Positions 3,211-29,110 of a stretch of 32,000 bases of DNA are shown here, one piece after another. The DNA is taken from assembly GCF_000020385.1 (NCBI RefSeq), contig NC_010814.1, positions 1,200,001 to 1,232,000 on the forward strand, given 5' to 3'. This DNA is from Trichlorobacter lovleyi SZ (GTDB lineage Bacteria > Desulfobacterota > Desulfuromonadia > Geobacterales > Pseudopelobacteraceae). A model generated the notes under the pieces. It did not search any database and was not told the DNA's origin. It saw nothing but the letters and a program-made list of their open reading frames with translations. The first letter of the stretch is position 1. Each line of letters starts with the position of its first letter. Both the position numbers and the translations under genes were made by a program.

Positions 3211-3257
3211 GATTGCTCCTCCTTAATCTGATTCCGATGGTGACTCACGATAATGCT

Positions 3258-3286: not shown

Positions 3287-3446
3287 CACTATATAATTAT
3301 TGATATTATTTGTGTTACGCGAGCGGATCAGCAGGTGCTGGCTGTGTTGTTGATGGAGCTGTTTATAGAATTAAATCTCTTTAATGGGTCATGCTGGATG
3401 CAGGTACAACAAGCCTTTGCAGCTTTTTGAGGATAGTGCTTTGGGT

Positions 3447-11526: not shown

Positions 11527-11587
11527 GCGATGGCACTCGATCATAGTGACAGCTGGGGCAGGGTTGCGCCGGGCGGGCAGGTCATTA

Positions 11588-12181
11588 ATGCATAAGCGCT
11601 TGTCTGACATAACCGGGGTGGTGCTGGTGGGGGGCAAGAGCCGCCGCATGGGGCAGGACAAGGCGTTCCTTGCCGTTGAAGGGGTGCCGGTGATCGAGCG
11701 GATTCTGTTGGCCCTGCAGGGGTGTTTCGAGCATCTGCTGCTGGTGGGGGACCGGCCGGAGCGTTTTGCAAGGTACCGGCTGCAGGTTGTGCCGGACAGC
11801 TATCCCGGCAGTTCCCTGGGAGGACTGTATACCGGCCTGCAGCATGCTGAAACGGATCTGATCTTTGTCAGCTCCTGCGATATTCCTTTTCCCGACCCGG
11901 AGCTGATCCGCCTGATCTGTGCCGCTTCAGCTTCCTGTGATGCGGTCGTCCCGGCCACTGCCGGCGGCCCGGAACCGCTGTTTGCCCTCTATCGCAAGTC
12001 CTGCCTGCCCCTGATGCAGGCAGCGCTTGAGGCCGGTCAGTACCGGATCAACGCCGTGCTGGGGCAGCTGAACGTCAGAACCATTGCTCCTGAACAGCTG
12101 GCAAAGCTCGATCCCGGCGGCAGGGCGTTGCTGAATATCAATACTCCGCAGGAGTACGCGGCCTGCAGACTGGAAACCTGA
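11588..12181 (+). CDS. mobA: Molybdenum cofactor guanylyltransferase
   Basis: The GVVLVGGKSRRMGQDKAFL motif is typical of MobA. Its stop overlaps the mobB start (ATGA). An upstream alternative start lies at 11546. Confidence 0.85.
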   Translation: MHKRLSDITGVVLVGGKSRRMGQDKAFLAVEGVPVIERILLALQGCFEHLLLVGDRPERFARYRLQVVPDSYPGSSLGGLYTGLQHAETDLIFVSSCDIPFPDPELIRLICAASASCDAVVPATAGGPEPLFALYRKSCLPLMQAALEAGQYRINAVLGQLNVRTIAPEQLAKLDPGGRALLNINTPQEYAACRLET

Positions 12182-12687
12182 TGAGCAGACCGGCTGTTGT
12201 CTCTTTTGTAGCCCATTCCGGTACCGGTAAGACCACCCTGCTGGAAAAACTGATACCGATCCTGAAGGAGCGGGGCTACCGGGTCGGCGCGATCAAGCAT
12301 GATGCCCATCGCTTCGAGATCGATCATCCCGGCAAAGACAGCCATCGCCTGACCGCAGCCGGTGCCGACAGTATGCTGATCTGCTCCGGTGAGAAACTTG
12401 CCCTGGTGCGCCGGCACCGGCAGGCCCCGGCCATTGAGGAACTGCTCAGGATCTGCGGCCCTGACCTGGATATCATCCTGACCGAGGGGTTCAAGCAAAG
12501 CAGCCTGCCCAAGATAGAGCTGCACCGGGGGGGTCTGGCCAGAGAGCTGATCTGCCGCGGGAACAGCCATGATCCAACCCTGCTGGCCATTGCCAGCGAT
12601 ACGCCGCTTACGGTTGATGTCCCGCTGCTGGATCTGAACAACCCGGCGCAGCTAGCTGATTTTATTGAACAAAGGCTGTTGCGATGA
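12181..12687 (+). CDS. mobB: Molybdopterin-guanine dinucleotide biosynthesis adapter protein
   Basis: P-loop SGTGKTT, followed by GAIKHDAH.FEIDHPGKDSHR, which is typical of MobB. Confidence 0.9.
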   Translation: MSRPAVVSFVAHSGTGKTTLLEKLIPILKERGYRVGAIKHDAHRFEIDHPGKDSHRLTAAGADSMLICSGEKLALVRRHRQAPAIEELLRICGPDLDIILTEGFKQSSLPKIELHRGGLARELICRGNSHDPTLLAIASDTPLTVDVPLLDLNNPAQLADFIEQRLLR

Positions 12688-13676
12688 GCGGGCAGGCCCC
12701 CTTGCGGGATACCTATAACCGCCGGATCAACTACCTGCGCCTGTCGGTAACTGACCGCTGCAATCTGCGCTGTTTCTATTGTATGCCTGCCGAAGGGGTG
12801 CAGGATGTTGGCCACTGTGGCGTGCTTTCCTTTGAAGAGCTGCAGATGATTGCGGAGTGCGCCGTGCGGTTGGGGATCGAGAAGATCAGGATCACCGGTG
12901 GAGAGCCGACCGTGCGGGCCGGTCTGGTTGATTTTCTGGCAAAACTCTCAGCCATTCCGGGCCTGCGTCACCTGGCCCTGACCACCAACGGCCTGTTACT
13001 GGAGCAGATGGCCGCTGATCTGTACCGGGCAGGTGTGCAGCGTCTGAATGTCAGCCTCGATTCGCTTAATCCTCAGCGATTCAGGGAGATCACCCGCGGC
13101 GGCGATCTGCACAAGGTGCTGGCCGGGCTGGATGCTGCGTTGGCGGCCGGGTTCCCGCACCCCAAGATCAATGTGGTGATCATGCGGGGGATCAATGACG
13201 CGGAGATCCTCGATTTTGCCGAGCTGACCCGGACGCGGGGCTGTCCGGTCCGCTTTATCGAATATATGCCGGTGGTCAGGGAAGAAGGCTGGCATCGGCT
13301 CTGCTTTTCCGGTCAGGAAGTGCTGCAACGGATTGCCGAAAAGTACCGGCTGGAACCGATCGACAAAGGGGCGTTCAGCGGTCCCTCCCAGGATTTCCGT
13401 ATCCCCGGTGCCATGGGCAGCATCGGTATCATTACCGCCGTATCCGGCCACTTCTGCAACGACTGCAACCGGATCAGGGTCACGGCGCGGGGGCAGGCCA
13501 AGGGCTGCCTGTTCAGCGATGAGAAGACCGATCTGCTGCCGTTTCTGCGGCCACCGGACTGCCAGGCGCTCTGTGCCGCCCTGCAGCGGATCGTGGCATC
13601 AAAGCCGGAAGGGCATGCCATCAAGTGCGGTGAGTATGCCCACAGTAACTTCAGCATGGCCCAGGTAGGAGGGTAG
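12684..13676 (+). CDS. moaA: GTP 3',8-cyclase (radical SAM, Moco biosynthesis step 1)
   Basis: Contains CNLRCFYCMP (CX3CX2C), a GGEPT motif and a C-terminal second cluster CNDCNRIRVTARG. It overlaps the mobB stop by 4 nt. Confidence 0.9.
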   Translation: MSGQAPLRDTYNRRINYLRLSVTDRCNLRCFYCMPAEGVQDVGHCGVLSFEELQMIAECAVRLGIEKIRITGGEPTVRAGLVDFLAKLSAIPGLRHLALTTNGLLLEQMAADLYRAGVQRLNVSLDSLNPQRFREITRGGDLHKVLAGLDAALAAGFPHPKINVVIMRGINDAEILDFAELTRTRGCPVRFIEYMPVVREEGWHRLCFSGQEVLQRIAEKYRLEPIDKGAFSGPSQDFRIPGAMGSIGIITAVSGHFCNDCNRIRVTARGQAKGCLFSDEKTDLLPFLRPPDCQALCAALQRIVASKPEGHAIKCGEYAHSNFSMAQVGG

Positions 13677-13680
13677 AACG

Positions 13681-14469
13681 ATGGCAGAGGTGATTGCAGT
13701 CTGTATCAGCGAAAAAAAAGGTGAGCGCAAGAAGCCGGTACCGGCGGTTGAACTGCGGGTGGACCACGGCATTGTCGGGGATGCCCATGCCGGTGACTGG
13801 CACCGTCAGGTCAGTCTGCTGGCCCAGGAGAGCATCAACAAGATGCGTGCCCTGGGGCTGGATGTCACCACCGGGGATTTTGCCGAGAACATCACCACCA
13901 GCGGGATTGAGCTGGTCTCCCTGCCGATCGGCAGCCGCCTGCAGATCGGTGAAACCCTGCTGGAGGTGACCCAGATCGGCAAGGAATGCCATACCCGCTG
14001 TGCCATCTATCACCAGGCCGGTGACTGTGTCATGCCCAAGGAAGGGATCTTTGCCAAGGTGATCCGGCCGGGCAGCATCAGGCCGGGGGACCGGATAGCA
14101 ACTGTTGCAGCGCCGATCCGGGTTGAATGGCGGCATTATGACAAGGCCGGTGCAACCTGTGAGCGATGCGGTGACACCGGCGCCAACCTGGAGCAGGTGA
14201 TAAGCGAGTATGCCGGGCGAGGTGTCGAGATTGAACTGCAGGAAACCCTCCTGAACGAAGAGCGGATCAGTGAATCAAACCTGGTGCTGATCAATGGCGT
14301 ACCGTTGGAGGAACTGCTGGCTGCAACCGCCGGGGAGTCCGATTGTCCCTCCTGCAGCTGCCTGACCGGTTCTGCAACCAGCTGTCGTACCGTGCAGTGC
14401 GATGGTGAGGTGTTTGAAGAACTGACGCCGGAACTGATCAGGAAAGGGATTGAGGCGGTGCTGGGGTAA
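13681..14469 (+). CDS. MOSC-domain protein fused to a C-terminal Cys-rich domain (recalled as DUF2703-like)
   Basis: The N-terminal 150 aa or so look like a MOSC beta-barrel (HGIVGDAHAG..., LLEVTQIGKECH). The C-terminal 110 aa or so read EWRHYDKAGATCERCGDTG...SDCPSCSCLTG...CRTVQCDG. Confidence 0.7.
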   Translation: MAEVIAVCISEKKGERKKPVPAVELRVDHGIVGDAHAGDWHRQVSLLAQESINKMRALGLDVTTGDFAENITTSGIELVSLPIGSRLQIGETLLEVTQIGKECHTRCAIYHQAGDCVMPKEGIFAKVIRPGSIRPGDRIATVAAPIRVEWRHYDKAGATCERCGDTGANLEQVISEYAGRGVEIELQETLLNEERISESNLVLINGVPLEELLAATAGESDCPSCSCLTGSATSCRTVQCDGEVFEELTPELIRKGIEAVLG

Positions 14470-14642: not shown

Positions 14643-15587
14643 TTACTTTTTTGGTTCTTCCTTCTTGACCGGTTTAGGGGCATCCCACAACCAGATCTGA
14701 CCAGCCATTGGCAGGGCTACCATATTTGCCCACTCTACCCAGCCACCTTCATATACTTTTACGTTTTTGTAGCCGAGCATATACTTGAGGATAACATAGG
14801 TGTGTGCCGAGCGGTCACCACTGTGGCAGTAGGTATAGATCGTACGATCTCCGTTGACATCTTTTGCCTCATACAGCTTCTTGATGTCTTCAAGTGACTT
14901 GAACAGCTGGCTGTCTTTTTCATTGGCATCGGAACTGGTCACCAGTACCGCTTTGGGTAGATAACCGCCACGGATGGCACGGATATTCTGGGCCTTGAAC
15001 TCGTTTTCCGGCCGGGAATCCAGCAGCAGTACCTCAGGCTTTGCCCCTTGGGCCACATCACGGTAGATGTCACTCCAGGTGACAGTCATGTCAGTTTTTG
15101 TCTTAGCAATCTTGTACTTGCTTTTTTTGATTTTAGTTACATCATCCGTTACCTTATTACCGAGTTTCTTCCAGTTGACAATTCCGCCGTTCAGCAGCTT
15201 CAGCTTGGCTGGGTCGTGGCCAAACATCTCCAACAGAAACAGCAAGCGGGTAGCAAACAGACTTGACTTGTCGTCGTAGGCAACAATCACGGAACCGTTT
15301 TCGATTCCCGACTCAGAGAGAAATTTCTCAAACTGCAACTTGGTTGGGTAGGCGGTGGCTGGATAACGATCAGTGTTGGAGAGATCAAGATAGCGTTTGA
15401 CCTGGATAGCTCCGGGGATATGCTCCTTGTCAAAGGCATTCGGCTTGTCAGCCACATCCATGATCTTGACGTTCTTGTTGTTCATGTTCTTCTTCAGCCA
15501 GTCGGCATCAACCAGGCTGATTGCCAGTGCTGCGCTGTTCATGCTGAACAGAGTGATCAGGGCCAGTGCAAAGATTTTCAATTTCAT
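14643..15587 (-). CDS. Periplasmic tandem-rhodanese sulfurtransferase
   Basis: The start was chosen at MKLKIFALALITLFSMNSAALA (signal peptide) after an AGGAGG RBS. The longer track ORF would overlap the psrC-like gene. There are two rhodanese domains. The first is inactive (AYDDKSS). The second has the active-site loop YCHSGDRS. Confidence 0.85.
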   Translation of the reverse strand: MKLKIFALALITLFSMNSAALAISLVDADWLKKNMNNKNVKIMDVADKPNAFDKEHIPGAIQVKRYLDLSNTDRYPATAYPTKLQFEKFLSESGIENGSVIVAYDDKSSLFATRLLFLLEMFGHDPAKLKLLNGGIVNWKKLGNKVTDDVTKIKKSKYKIAKTKTDMTVTWSDIYRDVAQGAKPEVLLLDSRPENEFKAQNIRAIRGGYLPKAVLVTSSDANEKDSQLFKSLEDIKKLYEAKDVNGDRTIYTYCHSGDRSAHTYVILKYMLGYKNVKVYEGGWVEWANMVALPMAGQIWLWDAPKPVKKEEPKK

Positions 15588-15637: not shown

Positions 15638-16609
15638 TCAGACCAGTTTGCTGATCTGTCCGGCGTAGACAAAGGTTAGACGGATCACCAGACTTCCCAG
15701 CAAGACCAGTCCGGCGCTCAGATTCATCTTGAGGATGTCGCTGCTGCAAAGTGTTTCATGGCACTCCTTGATCTCGGCCAGTTTCATCACCAATGCCAGA
15801 GGGAAGATGACGCCGATAAACAAGAGTGAGGCGGTATACCAGAGATATTCATGGTTTAAGCTGAAGAACGGCATGATCGAAAGCCGCTGTGATTCAGAGG
15901 AAACATACTGACCGTAGAAAAATAGCGGGATGATGATCATCTCGGCAATGATCAGGCCGATGTCGACCTTTGTGTAAAACAGTTTTACACACTGATCCTT
16001 GGCCAGCACGATCATCAGGGCTGCCCCTGCTGACATGGCTGAACAGAGGAACAGCATCGGCAGGATGGCGGTGTTCCAGAGTGGGCGGGCCACAAAGGCG
16101 CTCAAGAGCACACCGGTGTAGATGCCGATGAAGACCCCCATTGCAGCATTGGCCAGTGCAAGATACTGCATGCGTGGCTTTACCCAGGTGGCCAGATCAT
16201 CCATGAACGGCAGGCGGTACAACCACTCTCTGCGCTGTTCCGGCAGGGTGCCGTAGGCGAACAACAGGCTGATCGGGGTGAACAGCAGCAGCCCCCAGGA
16301 ACCCCAGGACATGGGGGAGAGCGGCTGTATCGTCAGGTAGAACCAGAACACATTCAGCTTGCGGTCCAGGTCCAGAAAGATAAAGAACATACCGATCCCC
16401 AAAATGACCGGTACCAGCCAGGGGGCTACCATGAAGACGGTTTCACCCGCCGGAATACGGTCTTCCTTTTTCTGAAGGTGCATCAGTGAGCTCATCACCG
16501 CCAGGCCTGCAGAAAGGCCGCCCAGAAACAGGTAGAGCGAAACACGCCAGTCCCAGATATGCAGGACCGGATTGGTCATGGCGTTGGCGCCGGTAATAGT
16601 CAGTTCCAT
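15638..16609 (-). CDS. NrfD/PsrC-family integral membrane quinol-interacting subunit
   Basis: 323 aa with about 8-9 TM helices and an NrfD-type N-terminus (WDWRVSLYLFLGGLSAG). A GGGGGAG RBS lies upstream. The gene directly follows the ferredoxin subunit. Confidence 0.85.
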   Translation of the reverse strand: MELTITGANAMTNPVLHIWDWRVSLYLFLGGLSAGLAVMSSLMHLQKKEDRIPAGETVFMVAPWLVPVILGIGMFFIFLDLDRKLNVFWFYLTIQPLSPMSWGSWGLLLFTPISLLFAYGTLPEQRREWLYRLPFMDDLATWVKPRMQYLALANAAMGVFIGIYTGVLLSAFVARPLWNTAILPMLFLCSAMSAGAALMIVLAKDQCVKLFYTKVDIGLIIAEMIIIPLFFYGQYVSSESQRLSIMPFFSLNHEYLWYTASLLFIGVIFPLALVMKLAEIKECHETLCSSDILKMNLSAGLVLLGSLVIRLTFVYAGQISKLV

Positions 16610-16621: not shown

Positions 16622-17179
16622 CTATTCCGTGCCAAACCGGCGGATGTAATAGACCCGTGGCTCGGTGCCGGCGCTTTTCATCGGCAGTTCGGCATGGTGC
16701 CCCTTCAGGGCCAGCCGCACCGGGCTTTTCGGGTCATTCAGATCACCAAAGATGCGGGACTTGCCGATACAGGTGGCTACACAGGCCGGCTCCTTGCCTT
16801 CCTTGATCCGGTGGTCGCAGAAGGTGCATTTGTCGGCAAACCCCTTGTTGTGGTCAATGTAGCGGGCGTCATAGGGGCAGGCAGCCACACAGGCCTTGCA
16901 ACCCACACAGCGTTTCTTGTCCAGCAGTACCAGGCCGCTCAGGCGGCTTTTGTAGGAGGCGCGGGTAGGGCAGTTGTAGACACAGGGCGGGTTGTCACAG
17001 TGGTTGCACAGCTCGGAGCGCAATTCAGTGCGCAGATTGGGAAACTGTCCTTCAGTTTTCTCCAGCACCCGTGTGCGAAACTGCTCGGGCGGTACGTTGT
17101 TCTCCGCCTTGCAGGCGACAATGCAGGCCATGCAGCCGATGCAGCGCCGTTGATCGATTACCATTGCATACTTCGGCAT
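16622..17179 (-). CDS. Four-cluster 4Fe-4S ferredoxin subunit (PsrB/PhsB/DmsB type)
   Basis: 185 aa containing CIGCMACIVAC, CNHCDNPPCVYNCP, CVGCKACVAACP and CTFC...C...C motifs. Confidence 0.9.
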   Translation of the reverse strand: MPKYAMVIDQRRCIGCMACIVACKAENNVPPEQFRTRVLEKTEGQFPNLRTELRSELCNHCDNPPCVYNCPTRASYKSRLSGLVLLDKKRCVGCKACVAACPYDARYIDHNKGFADKCTFCDHRIKEGKEPACVATCIGKSRIFGDLNDPKSPVRLALKGHHAELPMKSAGTEPRVYYIRRFGTE

Positions 17180-17180: not shown

Positions 17181-19373
17181 TCAGGCCCCCTTTACCAGTT
17201 TTACAAAGGTACAACGCATTCCGGTGCCGCCGCAGATCGGATCAACCGGATAGCTGCTGATCAGCTGCTGATCATCCGCCCCTCTGCGGAAAGCCTTTGT
17301 CAGACCTTTTGATTGTTGGCCAAAGCCATGCACCATGTAGACACAGTCTTCTCTAATCCGTTCCGTCACCTTCAGGCGTACGCGGTTTGAGGTGATCCCT
17401 TCCTGATTCTGCAGCGCCACATACTGGCCATCAGTCAGCCCCATTTTTCTGGCCTGTACGCTGCTCAGCCAGAGTTCATTTTCCTTGTACAGCTCGTTCA
17501 AGGCAGGGTTGTTTACCGTACGACTGAAGGTGTGTACCGCACTGCGACCATACAGCAGACGATAGAACCCTTGTGGCGGCTCTTCATTCTTCTCGTAGGC
17601 GGGTATCGGTTCAAACCCCAGCTCTTCAAGTTCCTTGCTGTACAACTCAATCTTGCCTGACTTGGTTTTGAAGACCGGCTGATTGTCGGCGGTGATGAAC
17701 GGCTTTGCCGTGTCAGGGAAGGAAATGACCCCCTTCTGTTTCAGTTCGTCATAGTCGATGTTGTAGGTCAGGCAGAGTTCATTCAGACGATCTTCGAAAT
17801 TTTCCCAGGGGAAGTAGTCTTCCAACCCCAGTTTTTTGGACAGCTCCTTGGCGATCCACCAGGCCGGTTTTGAGTCGTACATCGGCGCTACTGCAGGCTG
17901 GCGGATACTTGCGGACAGAGCGCGTCCCTTGCCGATGATCAGGCCGTCATGCCGCTCCAGGTAGGTGCATTCAGGCAGCACCACATCGGCGTAGAGCGAG
18001 GTGTCAGAGGGGATAACATCAACCACCACCAGCAGATCCAGCTTGCTGATCGCCTCGATGGTCTCTTTCTGGCCCGGCATGGCAGCCAGCAGATTGGTAC
18101 CGGTAACCATCCAGGCCTTGACCGGGTACGGTTCGCCGATACTGGTGGCCTCACGGATGGCGTTGGTGACCCCTTCGGCGCCGCCTAACGGGAAGCCCCC
18201 TTTTTTCAGGGTGGGACGGTTTGAGGCGGGAAAGCTGGGTGGTGGCACTGCCGGGAACGATCCCCTGGTGGCCAGGTAGGCACCCCCTTCTCGTCCCCAG
18301 GTGCCGAGGATGGCGCCCAGAATGGCAATTGCCCGTGAACGTTGTACATCCTTGCCGTCCCAGGTAACGTGGCGGCCGGGATGGATGCAGACTGCCGGGC
18401 GGTGCAGGCCCATCTCGCGGGCAGTGGCCATGATCTGTGCTGCCGGGATATCGGTCTCTTTTTCCGCCCACTCCGGTGTGTACTGCTGTACTGCCGCTGC
18501 AAGCTTATCAAAGCCGTGTGTGTATTTGGCAACGTACTCCCGGTCGTACCAGCCTTCACGGATGATGATATTGATCCAGGCCAGGATCAGGGCCATATCA
18601 CTGGCCGGTTTGATCGGCAGCCAGTGGTGTGCTTTGCCCGCAGCTACCGAAAAGCGGGGATCAACCACGATGATCTTTGCGCCGTTGCCGATCGCATCGG
18701 TAAACTCCTGCACCTGTGAGTTGTGCATGTTCTCGCCCAGGTGAGAGCCGATCAGCACCACCACCTTGCTGTTGGCCATGTCCAATCGTTCAGGTGAACC
18801 GATGTCGTCACCGTAGGTCAGCTCATACCCCACTACCCGTGGCCCACGGCACTGGGCAAAGGATGGCATGGCAAAGTTATTGCTGCCAAACCCCTGTAAC
18901 AGCGGCATGAAATGCTCGGTGGGGGAACCGTGGGTAAACAGGGCCAGTGATTCCGGACCATGCTCTTCCTTGATTTTTTTCAGCTTGTCGGCAATGTGGG
19001 TCAGTGCCTCGTCCCAGCTTGCCTTGCGAAACTGCCCCTCACCCCTTTTGCCGGTTCTGATCAGGGGATGTTTGAGCCGATCCGGGTCGTACAGCAGGCC
19101 GATACCTCCGTTGCCCCGTCCACAGAGCTTGCCTTTAGCGGTTGCAGAGAGCGGATTTCCCTCCAGCTTGACCACCCGGCCACCCACGACGGTGGCAATG
19201 GCGCCGCATTTCCAGAAACACATCTCGCAATAGGTGGTGATTTTTTCTGTCTTGGCCAGCCCCTTTTCACCGGCCCAGAGCAGAAACTGGTCAGGCAGAT
19301 AGGTGGCGGCAATTGCGCCGGCGGTACAGATTCCTGAAGTTTTAAGGAAGGAGCGTCTGCTCATAATCGGCAT
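17181..19373 (-). CDS. Mo-bisPGD oxidoreductase catalytic subunit of the polysulfide / thiosulfate / selenite (Psr/Phs/Srr) reductase type, exported by the Tat pathway
   Basis: 730 aa. A Tat signal (SRRSFLKTSGICTAGAIAA) and a CEMCFWKC-X-C [4Fe-4S] motif are present. The gene order A-B-C plus rhodanese supports the family. Substrate cannot be assigned from the sequence alone. Confidence 0.8.
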   Translation of the reverse strand: MPIMSRRSFLKTSGICTAGAIAATYLPDQFLLWAGEKGLAKTEKITTYCEMCFWKCGAIATVVGGRVVKLEGNPLSATAKGKLCGRGNGGIGLLYDPDRLKHPLIRTGKRGEGQFRKASWDEALTHIADKLKKIKEEHGPESLALFTHGSPTEHFMPLLQGFGSNNFAMPSFAQCRGPRVVGYELTYGDDIGSPERLDMANSKVVVLIGSHLGENMHNSQVQEFTDAIGNGAKIIVVDPRFSVAAGKAHHWLPIKPASDMALILAWINIIIREGWYDREYVAKYTHGFDKLAAAVQQYTPEWAEKETDIPAAQIMATAREMGLHRPAVCIHPGRHVTWDGKDVQRSRAIAILGAILGTWGREGGAYLATRGSFPAVPPPSFPASNRPTLKKGGFPLGGAEGVTNAIREATSIGEPYPVKAWMVTGTNLLAAMPGQKETIEAISKLDLLVVVDVIPSDTSLYADVVLPECTYLERHDGLIIGKGRALSASIRQPAVAPMYDSKPAWWIAKELSKKLGLEDYFPWENFEDRLNELCLTYNIDYDELKQKGVISFPDTAKPFITADNQPVFKTKSGKIELYSKELEELGFEPIPAYEKNEEPPQGFYRLLYGRSAVHTFSRTVNNPALNELYKENELWLSSVQARKMGLTDGQYVALQNQEGITSNRVRLKVTERIREDCVYMVHGFGQQSKGLTKAFRRGADDQQLISSYPVDPICGGTGMRCTFVKLVKGA

Positions 19374-19396: not shown

Positions 19397-19430
19397 AAAA
19401 AACGCCCTCCGATTAAGAATCGGAAGGCGC
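19397..19430 (-). terminator. Strong intrinsic terminator between the small -GC protein gene and the psrA-like gene
   Basis: On the minus strand, GCGCCTTCCGATT-ctt-AATCGGAGGGCG is followed by TTTTTT. This is a stem of about 12 bp with one G-T pair. It ends about 15 nt before the psrA-like RBS. Confidence 0.7.
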
Positions 19431-19440
19431 CAGGTTGCTA

Positions 19441-19767
19441 TTAGCAGCCAGCAACAACCTCAGTGCCGGTACCCTTGGGAGGCTCGCTCACCGACAGGGT
19501 CATGTTCTGTTTGATCTTGGCGGCCTTGGCCTTGCTGAATTTCAACGTTACCTGCTTTCCCTGCACATCTACCACCGTGGGCATACCGCCGGCTGCAGAC
19601 AGCACTGATCCCTTCTTTACCCAGGTTGGTCCGCCTTTGGCCACTTCCAGGGTGACCCGTTCGCCGTCATTTTTGGTTACCTTGCCGGAAAAGGAAGCGG
19701 CCATGGCGCCACTGCTCAAGGCCAGTGTCGTGAGTGCAACTGCAACCAATGTGATCATCTTTTTCAT
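19441..19767 (-). CDS. Small secreted protein ending in -AGC, a paralog of the 26769-27050 product
   Basis: 108 aa with an AGGAGG RBS and a signal peptide (MKKMITLVAVALTTLALSSGAMA). The mature part aligns with the ExtJ-like protein (GKV..V.DG..V.LE.....KKG......G....V.V.G..V.LK.S.A.A..IK). Both end in Gly-Cys followed by the stop codon. Confidence 0.7.
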   Translation of the reverse strand: MKKMITLVAVALTTLALSSGAMAASFSGKVTKNDGERVTLEVAKGGPTWVKKGSVLSAAGGMPTVVDVQGKQVTLKFSKAKAAKIKQNMTLSVSEPPKGTGTEVVAGC

Positions 19768-19821: not shown

Positions 19822-19837
19822 AGCAAGTGCGGTGCCA
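19822..19837 (-). promoter_or_regulatory. Sigma54 (-24/-12) promoter
   Basis: The minus strand reads TGGCAC-CGCAC-TTGCT, a perfect match to TGGCAC-N5-TTGCW. It lies 54 nt upstream of the ATG at 19767 and directly downstream of a sigma54-dependent regulator gene. Confidence 0.8.
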
Positions 19838-19946: not shown

Positions 19947-21290
19947 TTACAATCCGTACTGTTTTACTTTTCTCCAAAGTGAGGCAAGACTGATGCCAAG
20001 CAGTTTTGAGGCCTTGCCCCGATGCCCTGCGGTGGCTTTGAGTACGCGGATGATATGCCGTCGTTCCACTTCAGCCATTGGAAGCAGTTCCTGGTCGGAT
20101 GAGGATGAAAGCGGGGTGTCGGATACAGAAAAGCGCGGCAGGTACTGCGGCTGCAGTTCGTTTCCATCAGCCATAATCACAGCCCGTTCAATGATGTTTT
20201 CCAGTTCACGCACATTGCCGGGCCAATGATAGTTGCGCAGACTCTGCAACGCCTCTGGAGAGATGCTGGACAGCTGCACTCCGTATTGCCTGGCGTAGCG
20301 GGTCAGAAAGTAGTGGGCCAACAGGCCGATGTCACCATTGCGTTCACGAAGCGGCGGCAGTGTAATCGTGACCACGTTCAGGCGATAAAACAGATCACTG
20401 CGAAATCTCCCTGTCTGGACCTCCTTTTCAAGCGTTGTGTTGCTGGCGGCGATCACCCGCAGGTCAACCGAGCGCGGTTCGTGGTCACCAACCCTGATGA
20501 AGCTCCCTTCCTGCAAAACCCTCAGTAACTTGACCTGAAAGGCTGGAGAGGTGGTGTTGATTTCATCCAGAAACAGGGTGCCATGGTCTGCAGATTCCAG
20601 CAGCCCTTTCTTGTCTTTGTCAGCACCGGTAAAGGCACCGCGGGCATGGCCAAACAGCTCTGATTCCAGCAGTGTTTCAGGCAGGGCGCCACAGTTGATC
20701 GGCAGGAAACGCTGGTCACGACGCTGGCTCAGGCGGTGAATCATTCGTGCCGCCAACTCCTTGCCGGTTCCGGTTTCCCCCTGAATAAGGACCGTGGTAT
20801 CAAAAGGTGCGATCCTGGTGATCAGCGCCTTCAGTGTAGTCATCTGTTTGCTGGCGCCCAGAAGCTCGTCGGCTTGGCATCCGGCTACCTGCTGGCGTAG
20901 CTGGCGATTTTCATCCTGTAGACGCAACCGTACCAGTGCCCGTTGCACCACCAGCAACAGTTGATCCGGCTCAAACGGTTTCTGCAGATAGTCGTAGGCG
21001 CCGTTTTTAATTGCCTGTACTGCCGACTCAATTGAACCGTATCCGGTAATCACCACCACCAGGCAGTCAGGGTTAGCCTGAAGGGCCAGGTTCAGCAGTT
21101 CCATGCCGTCTATCTGTGGCATCATCAAATCAGTGATGATCAGATCTGTTGTTTGGCGTAACACCATTTCTGCAGCCTCAGCGCCGTCACTGCAGAGGAC
21201 TGCATTGATACCCTCACTTGCCAGAGTATCCCTGATCAGTTGCCGCATCCTCAGGTCATCATCGACAATGAGAATAAGTGGATCAGGCAT
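19947..21290 (-). CDS. Sigma54-dependent response regulator (NtrC family)
   Basis: 447 aa. The receiver reads DDD...DLMMPQIDG. Walker A is GETGTGKEL. The GAFTGA motif is canonical and ESELFGH is present. The C-terminal HTH reads [19 protein letters not shown]. Confidence 0.9.
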
Positions 21291-22938
21291 CGACCGACTC
21301 CTTGCAGGGCAGGATTACAACAAAGGTCGTGCCTCTGCTGTCTGACTTGACAATATCGATATTGCCGCCGTTCTCATTCACAATTCCTGCGCAGATGGAA
21401 AGTCCCAGCCCGGTTCCTTCCCCAAACGGCTTGGTGGTAAAAAATGGGTCAAAGATGCGGCTTCTTACTTCATCCGGGATGCCGGGGCCGCTATCCTGCA
21501 CCTCAAGTCTGACCCCTTCTGGCTGACGTCTGACAATAATACGGATCTCTCCCTGACTACCAATCGCCTGCAGGGCATTCATCACCAGATTCAGCACTAC
21601 CTGTTCAATTCCCCATGGGTCGGCGCAGACCTTCGGGATCAGCTCAAGGTCAGTGGTCAGGATGATCTTGCGTTTGCTGAGTTCAGTGGTAAGCAGGCAA
21701 AGGGCATTTTTAATGACACTATTCAGGTCACATGCGTCCAGGCGACACTGGGTTGGTTGGGCATGGCGGGAGAAGTTGAGCAAGGCCTGGATGATGGTGC
21801 CGCTCTTTTTGGCCTGCTCCGCAATCACTGCCAGCTGTTCACGCTGCTGTTGGGTCAGGTTCTCCTGTTTCAGTAACAGCCGGGCGTATCCCAGGATGCT
21901 TCCCAATGGGGTGTTCAGTTCATGGGCAACACCGGCAGAGAGCTGCCCGATTGCCGACAACTTTTCAGTGCGGTGATACAGTTCCTGCTGTTTCTTCTCT
22001 TCGGTAATGTTTCTGAAGGTGATCACACGGCCGATCCGTTTCATTTCATTATCCAGCAAGGGGGCCATGTTGAGTGATAGGTGGCATTCGTTTGCACGAG
22101 CCTGCGTGCAGGTTAGCTCAAGTCCTTGAATGATTTCCATCGGATCAGTCAGCTCAACGCTTATGACAGGAAAGAGGTCCGTAAGAGCCAGGCCAATCAG
22201 CTCCGCTTCATCACGTTGCAGGATCATGGTTGCAGAACGGTTAACCGAAAGGATCCGGTCATTGGTACCAGCCACCAGTAATCCCTCTGACAAGCTTTCC
22301 AGTACTGTTGCCAGCTTTGACTTCTCTGTCAGGTAAAAATCACGTTGCTCTTTTTCCGATTGTTCTGCCATCTTTTTTTCTGTGATATCAAGTGATACCT
22401 CGATGACGGTGGTAACCTTGTTGTTTTCATCACGTGCAAACGGCGTGGTGGCAACCTGAAAATACTTGCCTCGCTTGACAATCTCCCGCGCAACGGCCGG
22501 TTGACCGGTGGCAAAGGTGTATTTGGCCGGACAATGCTCCACCGGTGCATTGCGGTTGCCGTAGGCATCAAAGCAATAACAGCCTGTAACATCTTCAGCT
22601 TCCGGCGCCAGCAGCAGGGTGCGTTGTTTTTCGTTGCAGCGCAGGATACGGAAGTTGCGGTCGATGATTGAAATTCCTACCCCGGTGGCATCAAAGATCG
22701 CCTGCAGTTCATCCTTGGCTACCTGTAATTCATTGATGGTTTCATTGAGATACTCCAGTATGTGGCCGAATGACTGGGCAATCGTGCCGATCGGATCAAG
22801 CTCGATCAGAGCATGATCGTCCAGCTCTTCCTCCTGCAGCGGCTCGGTGCCCATAACTCCCAGCAGTTGGTTGGTCTTTTCCCTGATGTAGCGAACATAG
22901 GCAAGACAGTTTTCCTGTTGCTTGGGGCATCCGCTCAT
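21283..22938 (-). CDS. Cytoplasmic PAS-PAS histidine kinase
   Basis: 551 aa with no TM segment. There are two PAS-like regions, the first carrying a GCYCF...HCP cysteine cluster. The H-box is GVAHELNTPLG and the HATPase motifs are DSGPGI / GTGLGLSIC. Its start overlaps the TusA-like stop (ATGA) and its end overlaps the regulator start. Confidence 0.9.
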   Translation of the reverse strand: MSGCPKQQENCLAYVRYIREKTNQLLGVMGTEPLQEEELDDHALIELDPIGTIAQSFGHILEYLNETINELQVAKDELQAIFDATGVGISIIDRNFRILRCNEKQRTLLLAPEAEDVTGCYCFDAYGNRNAPVEHCPAKYTFATGQPAVAREIVKRGKYFQVATTPFARDENNKVTTVIEVSLDITEKKMAEQSEKEQRDFYLTEKSKLATVLESLSEGLLVAGTNDRILSVNRSATMILQRDEAELIGLALTDLFPVISVELTDPMEIIQGLELTCTQARANECHLSLNMAPLLDNEMKRIGRVITFRNITEEKKQQELYHRTEKLSAIGQLSAGVAHELNTPLGSILGYARLLLKQENLTQQQREQLAVIAEQAKKSGTIIQALLNFSRHAQPTQCRLDACDLNSVIKNALCLLTTELSKRKIILTTDLELIPKVCADPWGIEQVVLNLVMNALQAIGSQGEIRIIVRRQPEGVRLEVQDSGPGIPDEVRSRIFDPFFTTKPFGEGTGLGLSICAGIVNENGGNIDIVKSDSRGTTFVVILPCKESVDA

Positions 22939-23195
22939 GATTTACCGCCGATACTGATCTCGTACCAGGTTTCCACCTTGCGGACTTCGACAGCCAGCCC
23001 CATCTTTTGAGCAGAAGCAGGAACCGTACGGGTAGTGTCACGATGATCGGTACGCACCAACAGCCGTGCGGTATCATTCCTCAGGCGTTCCCGATATTGG
23101 TTGATCTGCTTGAGTACTACCAACAGGCAGGCTGGGCAGACCTGGCCGAGGATATTGAGTTCTATTGTTTCAACTGAGCGCTCATCATTGCTCAT
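22935..23195 (-). CDS. TusA/YedF-family sulfur(selenium)-carrier-like protein with a CPAC active-site variant
   Basis: 86 aa, starting at MSNDERS after an AGGAGG RBS. LNILGQVCPACLLVVLKQ aligns with TusA LDALGLRCPEPVMMVRK. The C-terminus (WYEISIGG) resembles TusA (YRYLIRKG). Confidence 0.7.
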   Translation of the reverse strand: MSNDERSVETIELNILGQVCPACLLVVLKQINQYRERLRNDTARLLVRTDHRDTTRTVPASAQKMGLAVEVRKVETWYEISIGGKS

Positions 23196-24024
23196 CTGTT
23201 TTACCTCCTGAATGTTTGACGCTGACAGCTGTCGGGTGGGCAAGCCGGAACCCAAGGCCACTGAAACGCCCGTTGGGAGCAAACCAGTAGCGAATGGATG
23301 CGCGGATGCATTTGGGTTCGCAATCCCAGCAGCCACCCCGGACGGCCTTTTCAGAGGATGTAGTGGGGCCTTGAGGATTCATCCTCGGGCTTTTGCTATA
23401 ATAGCTCGTATCAAACCAGTCCTGCACCCATTCCCACACATTGCCGCTCATATCATAGATGCCGAGTCCATTAGGCTTTTTCTGTCCAACTGGATGTGGT
23501 CTGCCATCGGAATTGTCATGGTGCCAGGCCAGAACATCAATGTCGTTACCTCCACAGAACTTCTCCTGTTTACCACCGCTGCGACAGGCGTATTCCCATT
23601 CAGCCTCGCTGGGGAGACGGAACTGTAGTCCGGTTTGTCTGTTCAGGCGTTGGATAAACTGTTGAACCTCATTCCAGCTGACCTGCTCAACCGGGCAGCT
23701 GTCGCCGCAATCCCTGAAGTTGGATGGCCTATTGCCCATGAACTGTTTCCATTGCCCCTGCGTGACCTCGTATTTGGCAATCATAAAGTCTGATACACAG
23801 ACCTCATGAACCGGCTTCTCGTCGCCAGCGCTTTCAAGAATGAATTCACCCATCTGAAAGCAGCCCCCTTTTACCGGGACAAGTTCGATGTCGCTGCGTT
23901 GTCTCAGCTCATCAGGCACCAACAGTGCATCATGAGCATCACAGATCACTGGCAACAGCAGTATGGTCAACCAGGTGAGGGCTGAAAGGGTGTATAGATG
24001 CTTTTTAATCGAGGGAGTACCCAT
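23185..24024 (-). CDS. Secreted FGE-sulfatase (SUMF1/EgtB/PvdO) domain protein
   Basis: The start was chosen at MGTPSIKKHLYTLSALTWLTILLLPVI (signal-like) after a GGAG RBS. Family motifs are present: YEVTQGQW, RLPSEAEWEYACR, GNVWEWVQDW and RGG.W. The longer track ORF would overlap the yedE-like gene. Confidence 0.85.
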   Translation of the reverse strand: MGTPSIKKHLYTLSALTWLTILLLPVICDAHDALLVPDELRQRSDIELVPVKGGCFQMGEFILESAGDEKPVHEVCVSDFMIAKYEVTQGQWKQFMGNRPSNFRDCGDSCPVEQVSWNEVQQFIQRLNRQTGLQFRLPSEAEWEYACRSGGKQEKFCGGNDIDVLAWHHDNSDGRPHPVGQKKPNGLGIYDMSGNVWEWVQDWFDTSYYSKSPRMNPQGPTTSSEKAVRGGCWDCEPKCIRASIRYWFAPNGRFSGLGFRLAHPTAVSVKHSGGKTDEQ

Positions 24025-24068
24025 GCAGGTCTGTCTCCTGGGACAGCAAAGGAAGAAGACTGTCCTGT

Positions 24069-25175
24069 TTAGCCGCTGTCTTTTGTTTGAGTAATCACCA
24101 GTGGTAGTATCTGTGCGCCGTGCCATGCCCCAAGCAGCATACTCATGACAAACAGCAGTGCCTCAATTGATAAAAGCGGCAGGCCTCCCAGCAGAAATTT
24201 GATGTTGCAGCCATTGGCCAGTCGAGCACCTAGTGCGATCAGAATTCCTCCAGTGAAGGCAGTCAGTCCCTGACGCCACGGGGGTAGTCCATATACCCTG
24301 AACTCTTTCAGAAAAAGTGAGGTAAGCAGTGCTCCGCCCAAAATGCCGGCCATAAAGGGCAACTCGGTCAATAGGGTAGGATCAGACATTGTTCCGGTTG
24401 GGGATGTTGTGGTCAATCCAGTCTGCTGAAGCAGTTGTTCCAAGTGCAAGACATGTGCTGAAAAGAGTTGTGACTCAAGCCATAGTCCGATGCGGAGGTA
24501 GGCTGTTGAGATACCCAGAGGCCAGCCGTTTATCAGGTAGGCCGATAGATTGAGCAGGGCAAGTCCGATGGCAATCTTCCAGGGCTGCAGGTATCCATTG
24601 GCTGCCGCAACTATCTGTAAAAGCCCGCCACGATACCAGCGCAGGGCGAAGAAAAATGTTAGCAGTATCACTATAATGTTGATTGTTTCAGCAGTAAGAG
24701 GCCAATGCTGGATTAGAAGCTTATTTTCGCTTGCACCTCCAGTTTGGAGTAGCTCTTTGAACAACGGCTGCAGTTCGGCATAGAACACACTACCTGTAAC
24801 GATGCCGACAAAGGCGACACCGTGGGAAAGGTTGCCACTCCCCATCTTGTACAGTGTGCTTATCACACAGCCGCCAGCAAGAACCATTCCGATGCCAAAC
24901 AACCACCCACCTGTCATAGAAGCGATGGAAGGCAACCCAAAGGTGGGTGGAGGTGTTGCTGATACTAAGCCGATATAACGAGCAAGGGTGAATAGTGACA
25001 GGGTTAGTCCCACAGCCAGCAGCAAGGGGCGCAAGAGGGTGCGATCCTGAAATAAAAATTGATCACGTAAAATGCCGGCAATGCAGAAATCCCCACGATA
25101 GAGCATGTTCCCCAGTGCCAAGCCAATGACCAGGTTGAAGCCGATAGTAACCCATGGGGAAAGAGTGATCGTCAT
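24069..25175 (-). CDS. YeeE/YedE-family membrane protein (a putative thiosulfate or selenium-compound transporter)
   Basis: 368 aa and polytopic. The family's Cys-containing motifs are repeated: GDFCIAG, GGCVISTLYK and ANGCNIKF. Confidence 0.8.
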   Translation of the reverse strand: MTITLSPWVTIGFNLVIGLALGNMLYRGDFCIAGILRDQFLFQDRTLLRPLLLAVGLTLSLFTLARYIGLVSATPPPTFGLPSIASMTGGWLFGIGMVLAGGCVISTLYKMGSGNLSHGVAFVGIVTGSVFYAELQPLFKELLQTGGASENKLLIQHWPLTAETINIIVILLTFFFALRWYRGGLLQIVAAANGYLQPWKIAIGLALLNLSAYLINGWPLGISTAYLRIGLWLESQLFSAHVLHLEQLLQQTGLTTTSPTGTMSDPTLLTELPFMAGILGGALLTSLFLKEFRVYGLPPWRQGLTAFTGGILIALGARLANGCNIKFLLGGLPLLSIEALLFVMSMLLGAWHGAQILPLVITQTKDSG

Positions 25176-25350: not shown

Positions 25351-26691
25351 TTATTTTCCGGTAGTACTGATTTTTACGGTCTTTTTGAACTCTTTCCAGA
25401 GGAACGGATCATCATCCATGGTGCCGAACGGCAGATACCAGAGCCTGACTTCCAGATCCAGGGTGTCGCTGCTGATGCTGCTTACCTTCTTGCCATCCTT
25501 CTCCTCTGTCTTGACCGGGAAGAAGATGTCATGGGTTGTGGTGATCGTCCTCAACGGCGGCAGGCTGGTGTCTTCCAGCATACCGCTCTTTTCGTAAGGA
25601 CCACGTCCCATCCGGTCGCCTTTACCCAGTTGCTGAGGAATCGGCATGAATATACGTTCTGCGTTGAATACTTCCTTGCCACTCTTGTCTTTTGCTTTTA
25701 CCGACAGAACCAGTCGGTTGGGGGTCGGTCAGCCATCGGGTATGCCGTGACCGGCCTTGTTGGTCAGCTCAATCCGTACCGCTGCCTTGGGACGGATAGT
25801 CGTGTTATCCCGCCAGTAGACCGAGTTGGTTTCCACATGCATCTCAACCGCCTTTTGAGCCATCTCCTTGGAGCGGTAACTCTGCATGTTATGGCCCAGC
25901 TTGCTCTCACGCATATGGCACTGCTGGCAGCTCTTGTTGCCCCCTTCCGGTATATAGGCCATCAGGTAGCTGGCATAGCCGGTTGCACACTGGGTCGGGT
26001 TTTCCTGATCAAAGTTGGGGCCCTGTCCGTGACACTGGCCACACATGATCGATTCAGACATGATCTGCCCTTTGGCCATTTTGGTGAACTTGCCATCCAT
26101 ATGCTCGCCTGACTTGCTGCCGTAGACCGTATCCTTTTTGGGGTAGCCTTCAGACCACTTGTGGGTAATGGCATTACGGTTGTGGCAGATCAGGCAGTTA
26201 ATATTAAGTGAGGAAAGGGTCTTCTCAAGTTTTTCTGCCTTGTCGGTATCTTCCTTTTTAATGGCGGCATCCCAATCCCAGAGCGTGGTCACGATTTCCT
26301 GAGCAACCTTGTCGGTTGCATCAGCCAGTTGGGGCAGGTGACACTTGGTACAGCCCTGCAGGTGTTCAACCTTGACATCCTTGGGTGACTTGACACCGGA
26401 GGCGGGCCAATCCATTGCGCCGTTGATGATAGCGGTCCTGAAGGTGGCTGCAGTACGTCCTGTGCCAAAGATAGAGCGGGCGTGGATCGATTTTGCCCAT
26501 TCATCATGGGCCTGCTGATGGCAGCCGATGCAGGAACTGGAGTCATAGCGTGCCACCAGTTCGGCAATACTGTTGGCCTTGGGCTGCGAAGCAAGGGTGG
26601 CGTCGCGGCCAACACCGACAGGAGCGGCAAGCGCAAAGGTTACCCCCGCCAGCAGCACAATAGCTGCCAGTGATAATATTTTTCGTATCAT
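25351..26691 (-). CDS. extKL: Periplasmic pentaheme c-type cytochrome with an in-frame UGA at codon 321, a probable selenoprotein (ExtKL-like)
   Basis: The start is at MIRKILSLAAIVLLAG (signal peptide) after an AAGAGGA RBS. Five CXXCH motifs are present (CIGCH, CTKCH, CLICH, CGQCH, CQQCH). The track splits the gene into 25729-26730 and 25351-25647, but I checked that the frame is identical. No other stop occurs across ...NKAGHGIPDG-TGA-PTPNRLVLSVKAKDKSGKEVFNAERIFMPIPQQ... . A hairpin follows the TGA. Confidence 0.7.
25700..25731 (-). other. In-frame UGA plus a candidate bacterial SECIS hairpin
   Basis: The minus strand reads UGA, then 10 nt, then the stem ACCGAC / GUCGGU (25700-25705 pairing with 25713-25718) with the loop UGGUUCU. 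The loop begins 17 nt after the UGA and has G at its second position. Confidence 0.5.
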
Positions 26692-26725
26692 GGGTGAAGT
26701 TCCTCTTGTTAAAGGAATGGCGGAG

Positions 26726-26758
26726 GCCATGAGGGGGGCATAAACTCCCCCTCATGGC
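26726..26758 (-). other. Very stable intercistronic hairpin (12-bp GC-rich stem) with no T-tract
   Basis: GCCATGAGGGGG-9 nt loop-CCCCCTCATGGC. It starts 10 nt after the TGA stop of the ExtJ-like gene and ends about 35 nt before the cytochrome ATG. Confidence 0.6.
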
Positions 26759-26768
26759 TCGATGGTGA

Positions 26769-27050
26769 TCAGCAACCCTGCATAGAGGCCATTTTGTCAA
26801 CCTTGACGGTGTCGCCAGCCTTCAGGTCGGCGGCGTTGGAGGCCTTGATGGTCAGCTTGGTGCCATCCACGGCTGTTACCTTGCCGGCCTTGCCGTTCAG
26901 CTTGACCCCGGCGCCTTTTTTGAACTTGGCATCAGCGCCCATTTCAACCACAGCCTGGCCATCGGCAACGGAAACCACCTTGCCCTCGGCAGCAAAGGCA
27001 GCAGTGGCGGCAAAGAGGGACAGAGTCAGCATAACGAGAATCTTCTTCAT
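26769..27050 (-). CDS. Small periplasmic protein ending in -QGC (ExtJ-like), a paralog of the 19441-19767 product
   Basis: 93 aa, starting at MKKILVMLTLSLFAATAAFA after an AAGGAG RBS. The sequence has a Lys/Gly/Val-rich beta-type composition. The C-terminus is Gly-Cys followed by TGA. Confidence 0.7.
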   Translation of the reverse strand: MKKILVMLTLSLFAATAAFAAEGKVVSVADGQAVVEMGADAKFKKGAGVKLNGKAGKVTAVDGTKLTIKASNAADLKAGDTVKVDKMASMQGC

Positions 27051-27078: not shown

Positions 27079-27414
27079 TTAGTCGGCTATCGGTTTTGCA
27101 TTCCACATAAAACGCGTATTTGACTTTTTGTCAGAAATCTTGCTGTCTGGCTTCTTGGTCTCTTTGACCGTTTCTGCAGCAGCCTTGGGCGCCTCCTGGT
27201 GGGGAGCCGGTTGCTGTACAACCGGTTGCTGCTGTGGTGTTGCAGCGGCTGTGCCACCAACAAACTGCCAGGAGTTAATGGTGGTGCTCGGCTCATCCAG
27301 CGAAACGGTCTGAGTCTTGCCGGAGCGGTAGGTGATCACCAGGGTGTCGGCAAAGCAAATGTTGGCACAGACCAGGGTGAGTAGTGCAGCGGTAATAAGA
27401 TTCCACTTTTTCAT
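27079..27414 (-). CDS. Small secreted protein with a Pro/Gln/Ala-rich linker and a Lys-rich tail
   Basis: 111 aa with an AAGGAG RBS and a signal peptide (MKKWNLITAALLTLVCANICFA). I recognise no family. Confidence 0.6.
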   Translation of the reverse strand: MKKWNLITAALLTLVCANICFADTLVITYRSGKTQTVSLDEPSTTINSWQFVGGTAAATPQQQPVVQQPAPHQEAPKAAAETVKETKKPDSKISDKKSNTRFMWNAKPIAD

Positions 27415-28943: not shown

Positions 28944-29110
28944 GGTTTCCTCCTTAGGGAAGTTGTTGCCCCCAGACCTGGCTCATTCCTTGTCCAGTGG
29001 CTATTGCAGACGATTTATATTGTCTATATCCGAACAGGCAGGTAGATTAAAAACGAATGATTCGCATAACCCTATGAGACGTATGCAGTTTTAAATATAT
29101 GGAGGTTTGC

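Follow-up and report, generated by a model that had tools for sequence, protein, structure and literature searches.

We analysed a 32,000-nucleotide (nt) stretch of the Trichlorobacter lovleyi SZ genome (contig NC_010814.1, positions 1,200,001 to 1,232,000; hereafter the window), which contains two copies of extJ, a gene for a small exported protein ending in Gly-Cys, 7 kb apart in the same gene array. By sequence, both products, copy A (108 amino acids (aa)) and copy B (93 aa), are members of the catalogued ExtJ family, and in that sense the genes were already known: each scores above the cut-off of the NCBIfam equivalog model NF040942 ('selenite/tellurite reduction operon protein ExtJ'; Table 1), in line with the guess of the original prediction that they may be ExtJ, and a Geotalea paralog aligns to model positions 1-77 of 77, including the C terminus. 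A profile search of the six-frame open reading frames (ORFs) of the window found A and B as the only ExtJ copies. The positions first given for the two genes were correct, but both genes lie on the minus strand; read on the plus strand, the same positions yield interrupted or meaningless translations and no ORFs. For copy B, a longer TTG-started ORF reaching 27077 is unlikely to be in use because a ribosome-binding-site-like GGAG precedes the ATG at 27050 and the homologs begin MKK.

Each protein consists of a signal peptide, a β-barrel and a tail whose last residue is the only cysteine. In copy A, the signal peptide (MKKMITLVAVALTTLALSSGAMA, residues ~1-23) is cleaved before ASFSGKV and the mature protein runs on to SEPPKGTGTEVVAGC, with the barrel at residues 25-94 and a disordered tail at 95-108 that ends EVVAGC. 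In copy B, the signal peptide (MKKILVMLTLSLFAATAAFA, residues ~1-20) is cleaved before AEGKV, the barrel spans residues 21-86 and the tail residues 87-93, the sequence closing with KVDKMASMQGC and a Gln-Gly-Cys-COOH end. The Gly-Cys ends that had been read in both products are therefore real, as AGC in A and QGC in B. Their predicted export also holds: both signal peptides are of the Sec type, with a basic N terminus, a hydrophobic core and an A-x-A site. Neither contains a lipobox or a cysteine, which rules out a lipoprotein. The two copies are paralogous, as originally proposed, with 31% identity across 96 residues by BLASTP (E = 1e-3) and, when alignments of the A and B subfamilies are compared by hhalign, a match of 98.2% probability (E = 6e-14) that spans both alignments from end to end, QGC included.

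Copy B occupies the ext-operon position: under a divergent LysR-type regulator, the gene order is ExtI, a small secreted protein, ExtJ(B) and ExtKL, followed on the same strand by YeeE, an FGE-sulfatase-domain gene and TusA (Table 1). Copy A lies outside this slot and heads a PsrABC-like operon, as at the compared loci L002-L004. This gene order confirms that one copy belongs to a porin-cytochrome operon and the other directly precedes a Psr-like reductase. By sequence, it is copy A, not copy B, that is nearest to canonical Geobacter ExtJ, being 50% identical to the ExtJ protein P0012 from a canonical extHIJKL-type locus; canonical ExtJ proteins (Geobacter, Geomonas, Geotalea and Geomobilimonas) are 104-108 aa long and A-like. 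The canonical slot of this genome thus holds the divergent B subtype, and the canonical-like A sits before the Psr-like operon.

Table 1. Genes, promoter and hairpins of the extJ gene array, in window coordinates
Feature	Position	Strand	Details
LysR-type regulator, divergent	29099-30004	+	
ExtI-type outer-membrane anion porin, first operon gene	27474-28943	-	NF040900 282 bits vs 150; Porin_O_P
Conserved 111-aa secreted protein between ExtI and ExtJ	27079-27414	-	Short N-terminal β segment, then low-complexity
ExtJ paralog B	26769-27050	-	93 aa; NF040942 63.3 bits vs cut-off 52.5
Strong hairpin after extJ-B TGA, before extKL	26723-26760	-	No T-run; -28.8 kcal/mol, z -4.9
ExtKL = MccSep, pentaheme cytochrome selenoprotein, polysulfide/selenite reductase	25351-26730	-	NF040886 447 bits
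YeeE/YedE-type sulfur/selenium transporter	24069-25175	-	
FGE-sulfatase-domain protein	23185-24126	-	
TusA-like protein	~22935-23195	-	
PAS histidine kinase	21283-22938	-	
Sigma-54-dependent response regulator	19947-21290	-	Upstream of paralog A
Sigma-54 promoter consensus TGGCACcgcacTTGC	19823-19837	-	56 nt upstream of paralog A ATG
ExtJ paralog A	19441-19767	-	108 aa; NF040942 62.8 bits vs cut-off 52.5
Hairpin after extJ-A, before psrA start	19401-19431	-	With T-run; -23 kcal/mol, z -5.1
Tat-exported molybdenum (Mo) subunit, Psr/Phs (polysulfide/thiosulfate reductase) clade	17181-19373	-	Directly downstream of A
PsrB-like 4Fe-4S subunit	16622-17179	-	
PsrC/NrfD-like membrane subunit	15638-16609	-	
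Secreted two-domain rhodanese, last gene of Psr-like operon	14643-15587	-	CHSGDRS active-site loop

The identities of the two reductases are clear. ExtKL has an in-frame TGA, read as selenocysteine, at 25729-25731 (...GHGIPDG-U-PTPNRLV...), past which the frame continues, and its likely start is the ATG at 26691; it matches the MccSep structures (PDB 9WT8 and related entries) at E = 1e-130, in an alignment that conserves R83, the haem ligand C239 and U325. Mechanical ORF calling cuts this gene into pieces of 333 aa and 98 aa (extK and extL), and the hairpin just 3′ of its TGA is weak (-11.5 kcal/mol, z -1.5). The Mo subunit downstream of copy A matches Thermus thermophilus PsrA (2VPW) at E = 1.7e-206; the PsrB-like and PsrC-like assignments lean on Pfam matches of the orthologous genes at L002. 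Just downstream of the NtrC-type sigma-54 response-regulator gene lies TGGCACcgcacTTGC, the only exact sigma-54 -24/-12 consensus in the window, which predicts enhancer-dependent induction of the extJ-A/psrABC-rhodanese operon by the adjacent PAS kinase. Published transcript data include extJ transcripts, which vary together with those of extH and extI.

A strong stem-loop directly 3′ of extJ is nearly universal among the loci, even where co-directional genes lie downstream. Its sequence differs between loci, and several of these hairpins have terminator-like T-runs. The one that follows extJ-A is conserved in L002-L005 and is likely to be a leaky terminator or an mRNA stabiliser. The stop codons that precede these hairpins also vary: copy A ends in TAA followed by TAG, copy B in TGA, and homologs in TGA, TAA, TAG, TGA-TAA or TGA-TGA. 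Because of this variation across the family, we take the cysteine to be the true C terminus rather than the first residue of a Cys-selenocysteine end.

Several searches bear on how well the terminal cysteine, which was claimed to be conserved, is kept in homologs. First, 12 homologs of copy A (46-94% identity) and 98 of copy B (59-100% identity) were retrieved, and in both sets the full-length proteins all end (Q/A)GC. Second, a joint A and B profile run against 1.84 billion representative proteins gave 115 matches, among which the proteins of ~70-130 aa nearly all end xGC (QGC, SGC, AGC, TGC, EGC, GGC and others), with a few ending CG, CGT or CGM. Third, since that profile itself contained QGC, the matches were re-scored with a profile of the barrel only, without signal peptide or tail: at a library-scale E value of 1e-3 or below, 54 small proteins end GC, 4 have a cysteine within the last four residues and 5 have none, these last appearing truncated or frameshifted. 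Over 171 small homologs in all, the last three residues are QGC in 125, AGC in 22, SGC in 11, TGC in 5, VGC in 3 and others in 5; the terminal cysteine is the sole cysteine of the mature protein in 160 (94%), and between the last strand and the C terminus lie 6-23 residues (median 7), among which Ala, Gln, Ser, Met and Gly are abundant. With about 170 homologs ending xGC, very distant ones among them, the claim stands, and in these sequences the conservation of the terminal Gly-Cys is far beyond chance. Both window copies fit the description of a secreted protein of ~90-110 aa ending xGC, a definition derived here and unpublished.

Three variants depart from this plan. Geomonas ExtJ (L011, L012, L014-L017 and L021) has a second tail cysteine 8 residues ahead of the terminal one, in (T/S)ECEGDELQGC. 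In very large proteins of 539-2727 aa, found among the matches of the representative search (P0154, P0162, P0171, P0186, P0192, P0197, P0210 and P0212), the ExtJ-type barrel occurs as 7-11 tandem repeats with no terminal GC; the barrel is therefore a general module, and it is the tail cysteine that defines the small-protein family. Finally, P0110, a 54-aa protein on a 20-kb metagenome contig, joins the N-terminal half of ExtJ-B to the last residues of ExtL (...FKKTVKISTTGK) at a shared junction of FKK/TTCAAAAA type; this natural deletion variant implies that the ExtJ tail and the whole of ExtK have been lost in that population.

AlphaFold2 predicts the same six-stranded β-barrel for both copies, as expected from the claim that they are β-rich (mean predicted local distance difference test score (pLDDT) 75 for A and 78 for B; predicted template modelling score 0.59 and 0.62). 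The pLDDT is near 90 in the barrel and below 50 in the C-terminal tail. A Foldseek search of the Protein Data Bank with both models retrieved only the barrels of riboflavin synthase, the N-terminal (crown) domain of F1-ATPase alpha/beta and the AlaRS barrel domain, at marginal best E values of 2.4e-4 and 4e-3. Structural kinship to known sulfur carriers, sought in the same search, was rejected on these generic barrels. The Pfam matches of A and B (DUF6799, KOW, MSSS-SH3 and CT_A_B) are all under the gathering score and merely mirror the barrel shape.

The setting of extJ in other genomes shows which neighbours are constant. In the canonical arrangement, a LysR gene faces ExtH rhodanese-ExtI-(small protein)-ExtJ-ExtK-U-ExtL; Geotalea has a second ExtJ copy that heads an ExtM-N/O-P-S operon, and Syntrophaceae and Thermodesulfobacteriota metagenome-assembled genomes have a porin-free series from a histidine kinase and sigma-54 response regulator to rhodanese-ExtJ-ExtKL. 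The copy-A operon (sigma-54 response regulator-ExtJ-PsrABC-rhodanese) recurs in other genomes, there followed by ExtM-ExtN-Rieske. B-type copies occur as Rieske-cytochrome-rhodanese-ExtI-ExtJ, with no ExtKL, or as a bare cassette of LysR and ExtI-small protein-ExtJ flanked by ArsR, ArsP, thioredoxin, DsbD, rhodanese, Acr3 and ArsC genes. Among distant members (~30% identity or less), the arrangements are LysR with PhsABC-like-ExtI-GC protein, an ExtI-GC protein pair, ExtI-GC protein-Tat PsrA-like, and YeeE-GC protein-rhodanese; several of these lie on contigs of 0.9-1.6 kb, where the neighbours were read from partial flanking ORFs. A divergent LysR regulator is found upstream of nearly all ExtI-ExtJ cassettes (see also PMC6148476).

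Comparing these arrangements across loci, the most constant partner of ExtJ is the ExtI-type porin immediately upstream, with rhodaneses, YeeE and polysulfide/thiosulfate-type reductases (ExtKL, Psr/Phs) as other recurrent neighbours. On this point the original prediction needs correcting: the steadier companion is the porin, not the reductases. ExtI has reportedly been linked, in a 2019 paper, to selenite uptake and ExtH localisation. Loss of ExtI impairs the reduction of both selenite and tellurite (PMC5877670).

Two further components accompany ExtI-ExtJ cassettes. The small protein between ExtI and ExtJ has homologs of ~104-135 aa (L001:7023-7334, L009, L013, L019, L022, L024, L037:9660-9974 and L038:9659-9973), which share a V(I/V)xYRSGKxQT(V/I)xL(D/E)EPST β segment, a long low-complexity region and a C-terminal R(F/I)xW; it matches no Pfam or NCBIfam family and could count as another, as yet unnamed, part of the porin-ExtJ module. 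On unrelated contigs, a cluster of ArsR, an ArsP-type permease, two thioredoxin-like proteins and a DsbD/CcdA-like membrane protein (L030:10804-14090, L037:4000-8466 and L038:3668-7016) stands beside LysR-ExtI-ExtJ, joined in L030 and L038 by a single-domain rhodanese. The ArsP-thioredoxin-DsbD cluster could be a source of reductant in the periplasm, maintaining the ExtJ thiol or recycling it.

Elsewhere in the window, the FGE-sulfatase gene (SUMF1/EgtB/SenA-like) between YeeE and TusA is absent from the collinear loci L002 and L003, where TusA directly follows YeeE. A second molybdopterin oxidoreductase exported by the twin-arginine translocation (Tat) pathway (856 aa, 315-2885, minus strand) belongs to a group at 315-7223 on the minus strand with its own sigma-54 response regulator, an sCache/HAMP histidine kinase and a phosphonate-binding-type periplasmic protein. 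Mo-cofactor genes at 11546-14469 on the plus strand (MobA, MobB, MoaA and a MOSC-DUF2703 protein) converge on the end of the Psr-like operon, which fits local provisioning of both Mo enzymes.

What might such a protein do? The literature calls ExtJ, GSU2938 in the extHIJKLMNOPQS cluster of Geobacter sulfurreducens, only a 'small periplasmic' or 'hypothetical' protein and gives it no function (PMC5877670, PMC6148476). Publications naming ExtJ or GSU2938 yielded no mention of the terminal cysteine or of the porin-ExtJ pairing. We found no report of an invariant terminal Gly-Cys on a disordered tail, of a superfamily extending well beyond the Geobacteraceae, of the porin-ExtJ pair as a conserved core or of paralogs paired with two polysulfide reductases in one array. 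ExtKL, by contrast, was characterised in August 2026 as MccSep, a polysulfide reductase dependent on selenocysteine and a His/Cys haem that is essential for S0 respiration and also reduces selenite; the same paper states as open the entry route of polysulfide and the further periplasmic and membrane components of sulfur transfer, and it does not mention ExtJ (PMC13510729).

The features that suggest a carrier are an exported small domain, a disordered arm and a glycine beside the sole cysteine at the very end. The genes nearby, for an anion porin, for sulfurtransferases and for two reductases of polysulfide type that are unrelated to each other, point the same way. The carrier of persulfide or selenopersulfide that was first put forward gains strength, as a proposal, from this setting: ExtKL is now known as a polysulfide/selenite reductase (PMC13510729), the other module has a PsrA homolog, and rhodaneses, YeeE/TusA and the porin recur beside ExtJ. 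What adduct ExtJ forms, which way the chalcogen passes, who the partners are and what the hairpins do is inferred from anatomy and setting, and we see an even chance that ExtJ is a swinging-arm thiol of the periplasm, taking up polysulfide or selenite that comes in through ExtI, or sulfur from rhodanese, and delivering it to the two reductases. The terminal thiolate would trap thiophilic anions (polysulfide in sulfur respiration, as well as selenite and tellurite) on their exit from the ExtI anion porin, or would alternatively be loaded with sulfur by a periplasmic or outer-membrane rhodanese, giving an adduct of the form Cys-S-Sn- (or Cys-S-Se-). The small Gly-Cys end would let the arm enter the substrate funnel of the terminal reductase, where the chalcogen would be reduced and the thiol regenerated. 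Copy B would serve the haem/selenocysteine polysulfide reductase ExtKL, and copy A the PsrABC-like Mo reductase with which it would be co-induced from the sigma-54 promoter. The hairpin after each extJ stop probably keeps the carrier in excess of the enzyme.

Carriers of this kind have precedents in SoxY, with its C-terminal GGCGG arm, in DsrC, with a cysteine on its C-terminal arm, and in the periplasmic Sud, which feeds polysulfide-sulfur to Wolinella Psr. The window proteins are nearest, of course, to ExtJ of G. sulfurreducens, with which they share family model, size and signal peptide, and the ext operon of the window shares the canonical slot of that gene, after the ExtI porin, before ExtKL and with a divergent LysR. 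SoxY resembles ExtJ in being a small periplasmic all-β protein with one reactive, Gly-flanked cysteine on a flexible arm at the extreme C terminus, and it carries sulfur adducts between enzymes. However, SoxY is an Ig-like sandwich with a Tat signal, a GGCGG end and the obligate partner SoxZ, whereas ExtJ has a barrel of six strands, carries a Sec signal and finishes in xGC, with the cysteine last. A Pfam scan and the Foldseek search gave no SoxY domain or fold for A or B, whose AGC and QGC ends lack the GGCGG motif, and no Sox proteins were found among the window proteins scanned, which did not include every ORF.

DsrC/TusE likewise has a conserved near-C-terminal cysteine on a flexible arm, which is persulfidated, making the protein itself the substrate of a terminal reductase; the two tail cysteines of Geomonas ExtJ recall its two-cysteine arm. 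Unlike ExtJ, DsrC is cytoplasmic, an alpha/beta protein with a helix-turn-helix and two cysteines spaced by 10, with the cysteine penultimate, and searches of Pfam, NCBIfam and Foldseek showed no sequence or fold relation to A and B, which have signal peptides and, in their family, mostly a single cysteine. Closest in role is Sud of Wolinella succinogenes, a periplasmic single-cysteine protein that binds polysulfide-sulfur, passes it to Psr and lowers the effective Km, which is the role proposed here for copy A. Sud differs in its rhodanese fold and active-site loop cysteine; the copy-A operon encodes a separate secreted rhodanese, and A and B, modelled as barrels, have no rhodanese match in Pfam or NCBIfam. 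By sequence and fold, A and B thus lie outside the SoxY, DsrC/TusE and rhodanese/Sud families and, by analogy, may nevertheless work like them. A thiol swinging-arm carrier in a new fold would be no surprise in principle.

Several points weigh against a chalcogen carrier. In vitro, MccSep reduces free polysulfide and selenite without ExtJ, haem-derived electrons being sufficient (PMC13510729); catalysis thus does not strictly require ExtJ. An isolated thiol in the periplasm might become oxidised unless it is kept reduced. The predicted fold fits generic barrels only and resembles no known sulfur carrier. Some B-type cassettes have no reductase within ~10 kb on either side and lie in arsenic- or metal-resistance neighbourhoods. 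Finally, the GC conservation among the weakest matches is partly ascertainment, as the search profile held QGC, which the barrel-only re-scoring mitigates and does not remove.

Other roles for the thiol have to be weighed against this one. The nearest is an assimilatory relay in which ExtJ passes selenium or sulfur from ExtI to the inner-membrane YeeE/YedE and the cytoplasmic TusA for uptake, for instance of selenium for the selenocysteine of MccSep. In its favour, the genes from ExtI to TusA lie on one strand of the window, YeeE-TusA also precedes the copy-A operon in L002, a distant homolog stands between YeeE and a rhodanese, and ExtI has reportedly been linked to selenite uptake. We nonetheless consider the relay unlikely: YeeE is missing from the vicinity of most ExtJ loci (Geobacter, Geomonas and the distant porin-GC cassettes), and ExtJ copies head reductase or electron-transfer operons.

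A little less likely still is that ExtJ carries no substrate and is a redox or resolving thiol that exchanges with the reductases or rhodanese, acting on a MccSep Sec-Se-S-Cys intermediate (Sec, selenocysteine) or re-reducing ExtH, and perhaps recycled by DsbD/thioredoxin. The mechanism proposed for MccSep passes through U325-Se-(S/Se)-S-C239 (PMC13510729), the ArsP-thioredoxin-DsbD-rhodanese cluster recurs beside ExtI-ExtJ (L030, L037 and L038), and Geomonas ExtJ has its second tail cysteine (ECEGDELQGC). Yet MccSep turns over in vitro on haem-derived electrons alone, ExtJ also stands beside Mo enzymes that need no external thiol, and most ExtJ proteins have a single cysteine.

The arsenic neighbourhoods raise a third alternative, that with the porin the ExtJ thiol is a metalloid chaperone or detoxification sink for arsenite, antimonite or tellurite, perhaps in an oligomeric form with several tails close to one another. 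B-type and distant cassettes do lie beside ArsR, ArsC (LMWPc), Acr3 (SBF), ArsD/ArsA, ArsP and a methyltransferase gene. This is improbable, because a single thiol binds As(III) weakly and sulfur/selenium reductases are the best-populated contexts; proximity to ars genes could be co-location on islands only, and no evidence of an oligomer was obtained.

More improbable again is a structural role without carrier chemistry, the terminal cysteine forming a covalent homodimer or anchoring ExtJ, as plug or assembly factor, on the porin or on some other protein of the envelope. ExtJ tightly adjoins the ExtI porin in most loci, and ExtI influences where other envelope proteins are located and how stable they are (PMC5877670), but porin-free ExtJ copies, including copy A of the window, head reductase or cytochrome operons, and ExtI has no obviously conserved partner cysteine on less than detailed inspection. 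Last, a Gly-Cys-selenocysteine end like that of thioredoxin reductase, with the copy B hairpin as selenocysteine insertion sequence, can be dismissed for the family: copy B does end GC-TGA with a strong hairpin ~10 nt on, and TGA is the commonest stop, but copy A ends TAA-TAG, homologs end in all the varied and doubled stops listed above, and the hairpins diverge in sequence and in several cases carry terminator-like T-runs.

The swinging-arm carrier can be taken one step further, to a view that we regard as possible but doubtful: that Geobacter-type respiration of sulfur (and selenite) runs on protein-bound substrate. ExtJ-Cys-S-Sn-, formed at the periplasmic mouth of ExtI, would thread its Gly-Cys-COO- end into the channels of MccSep and Psr, and the α-carboxylate of ExtJ might dock on the anion-binding Arg83 of MccSep. 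The porin and the terminal-Cys protein would then be a widespread thiol trap for the import of thiophilic anions (polysulfide, selenite, tellurite and perhaps arsenite), coupled to different reductases across Desulfobacterota and Proteobacteria and built on a carrier whose fold has no kinship with SoxY, DsrC or rhodanese.

The route by which insoluble sulfur gets to the periplasmic reductases of Geobacter and Desulfuromonas is a decades-old question. Because ExtJ stands between the ExtI porin and MccSep, and before Psr-type enzymes, with an invariant thiol on a flexible arm, it is a concrete, testable candidate for the missing component. If ExtJ does act in this way, SoxY and DsrC would be joined by a third class of swinging-arm chalcogen carrier with an unrelated structure, the shared selenite and tellurite phenotypes of ExtI, ExtH and ExtKL mutants would be accounted for, and the porin-ExtJ cassette would serve as a marker for polysulfide and selenite handling in metagenomes.

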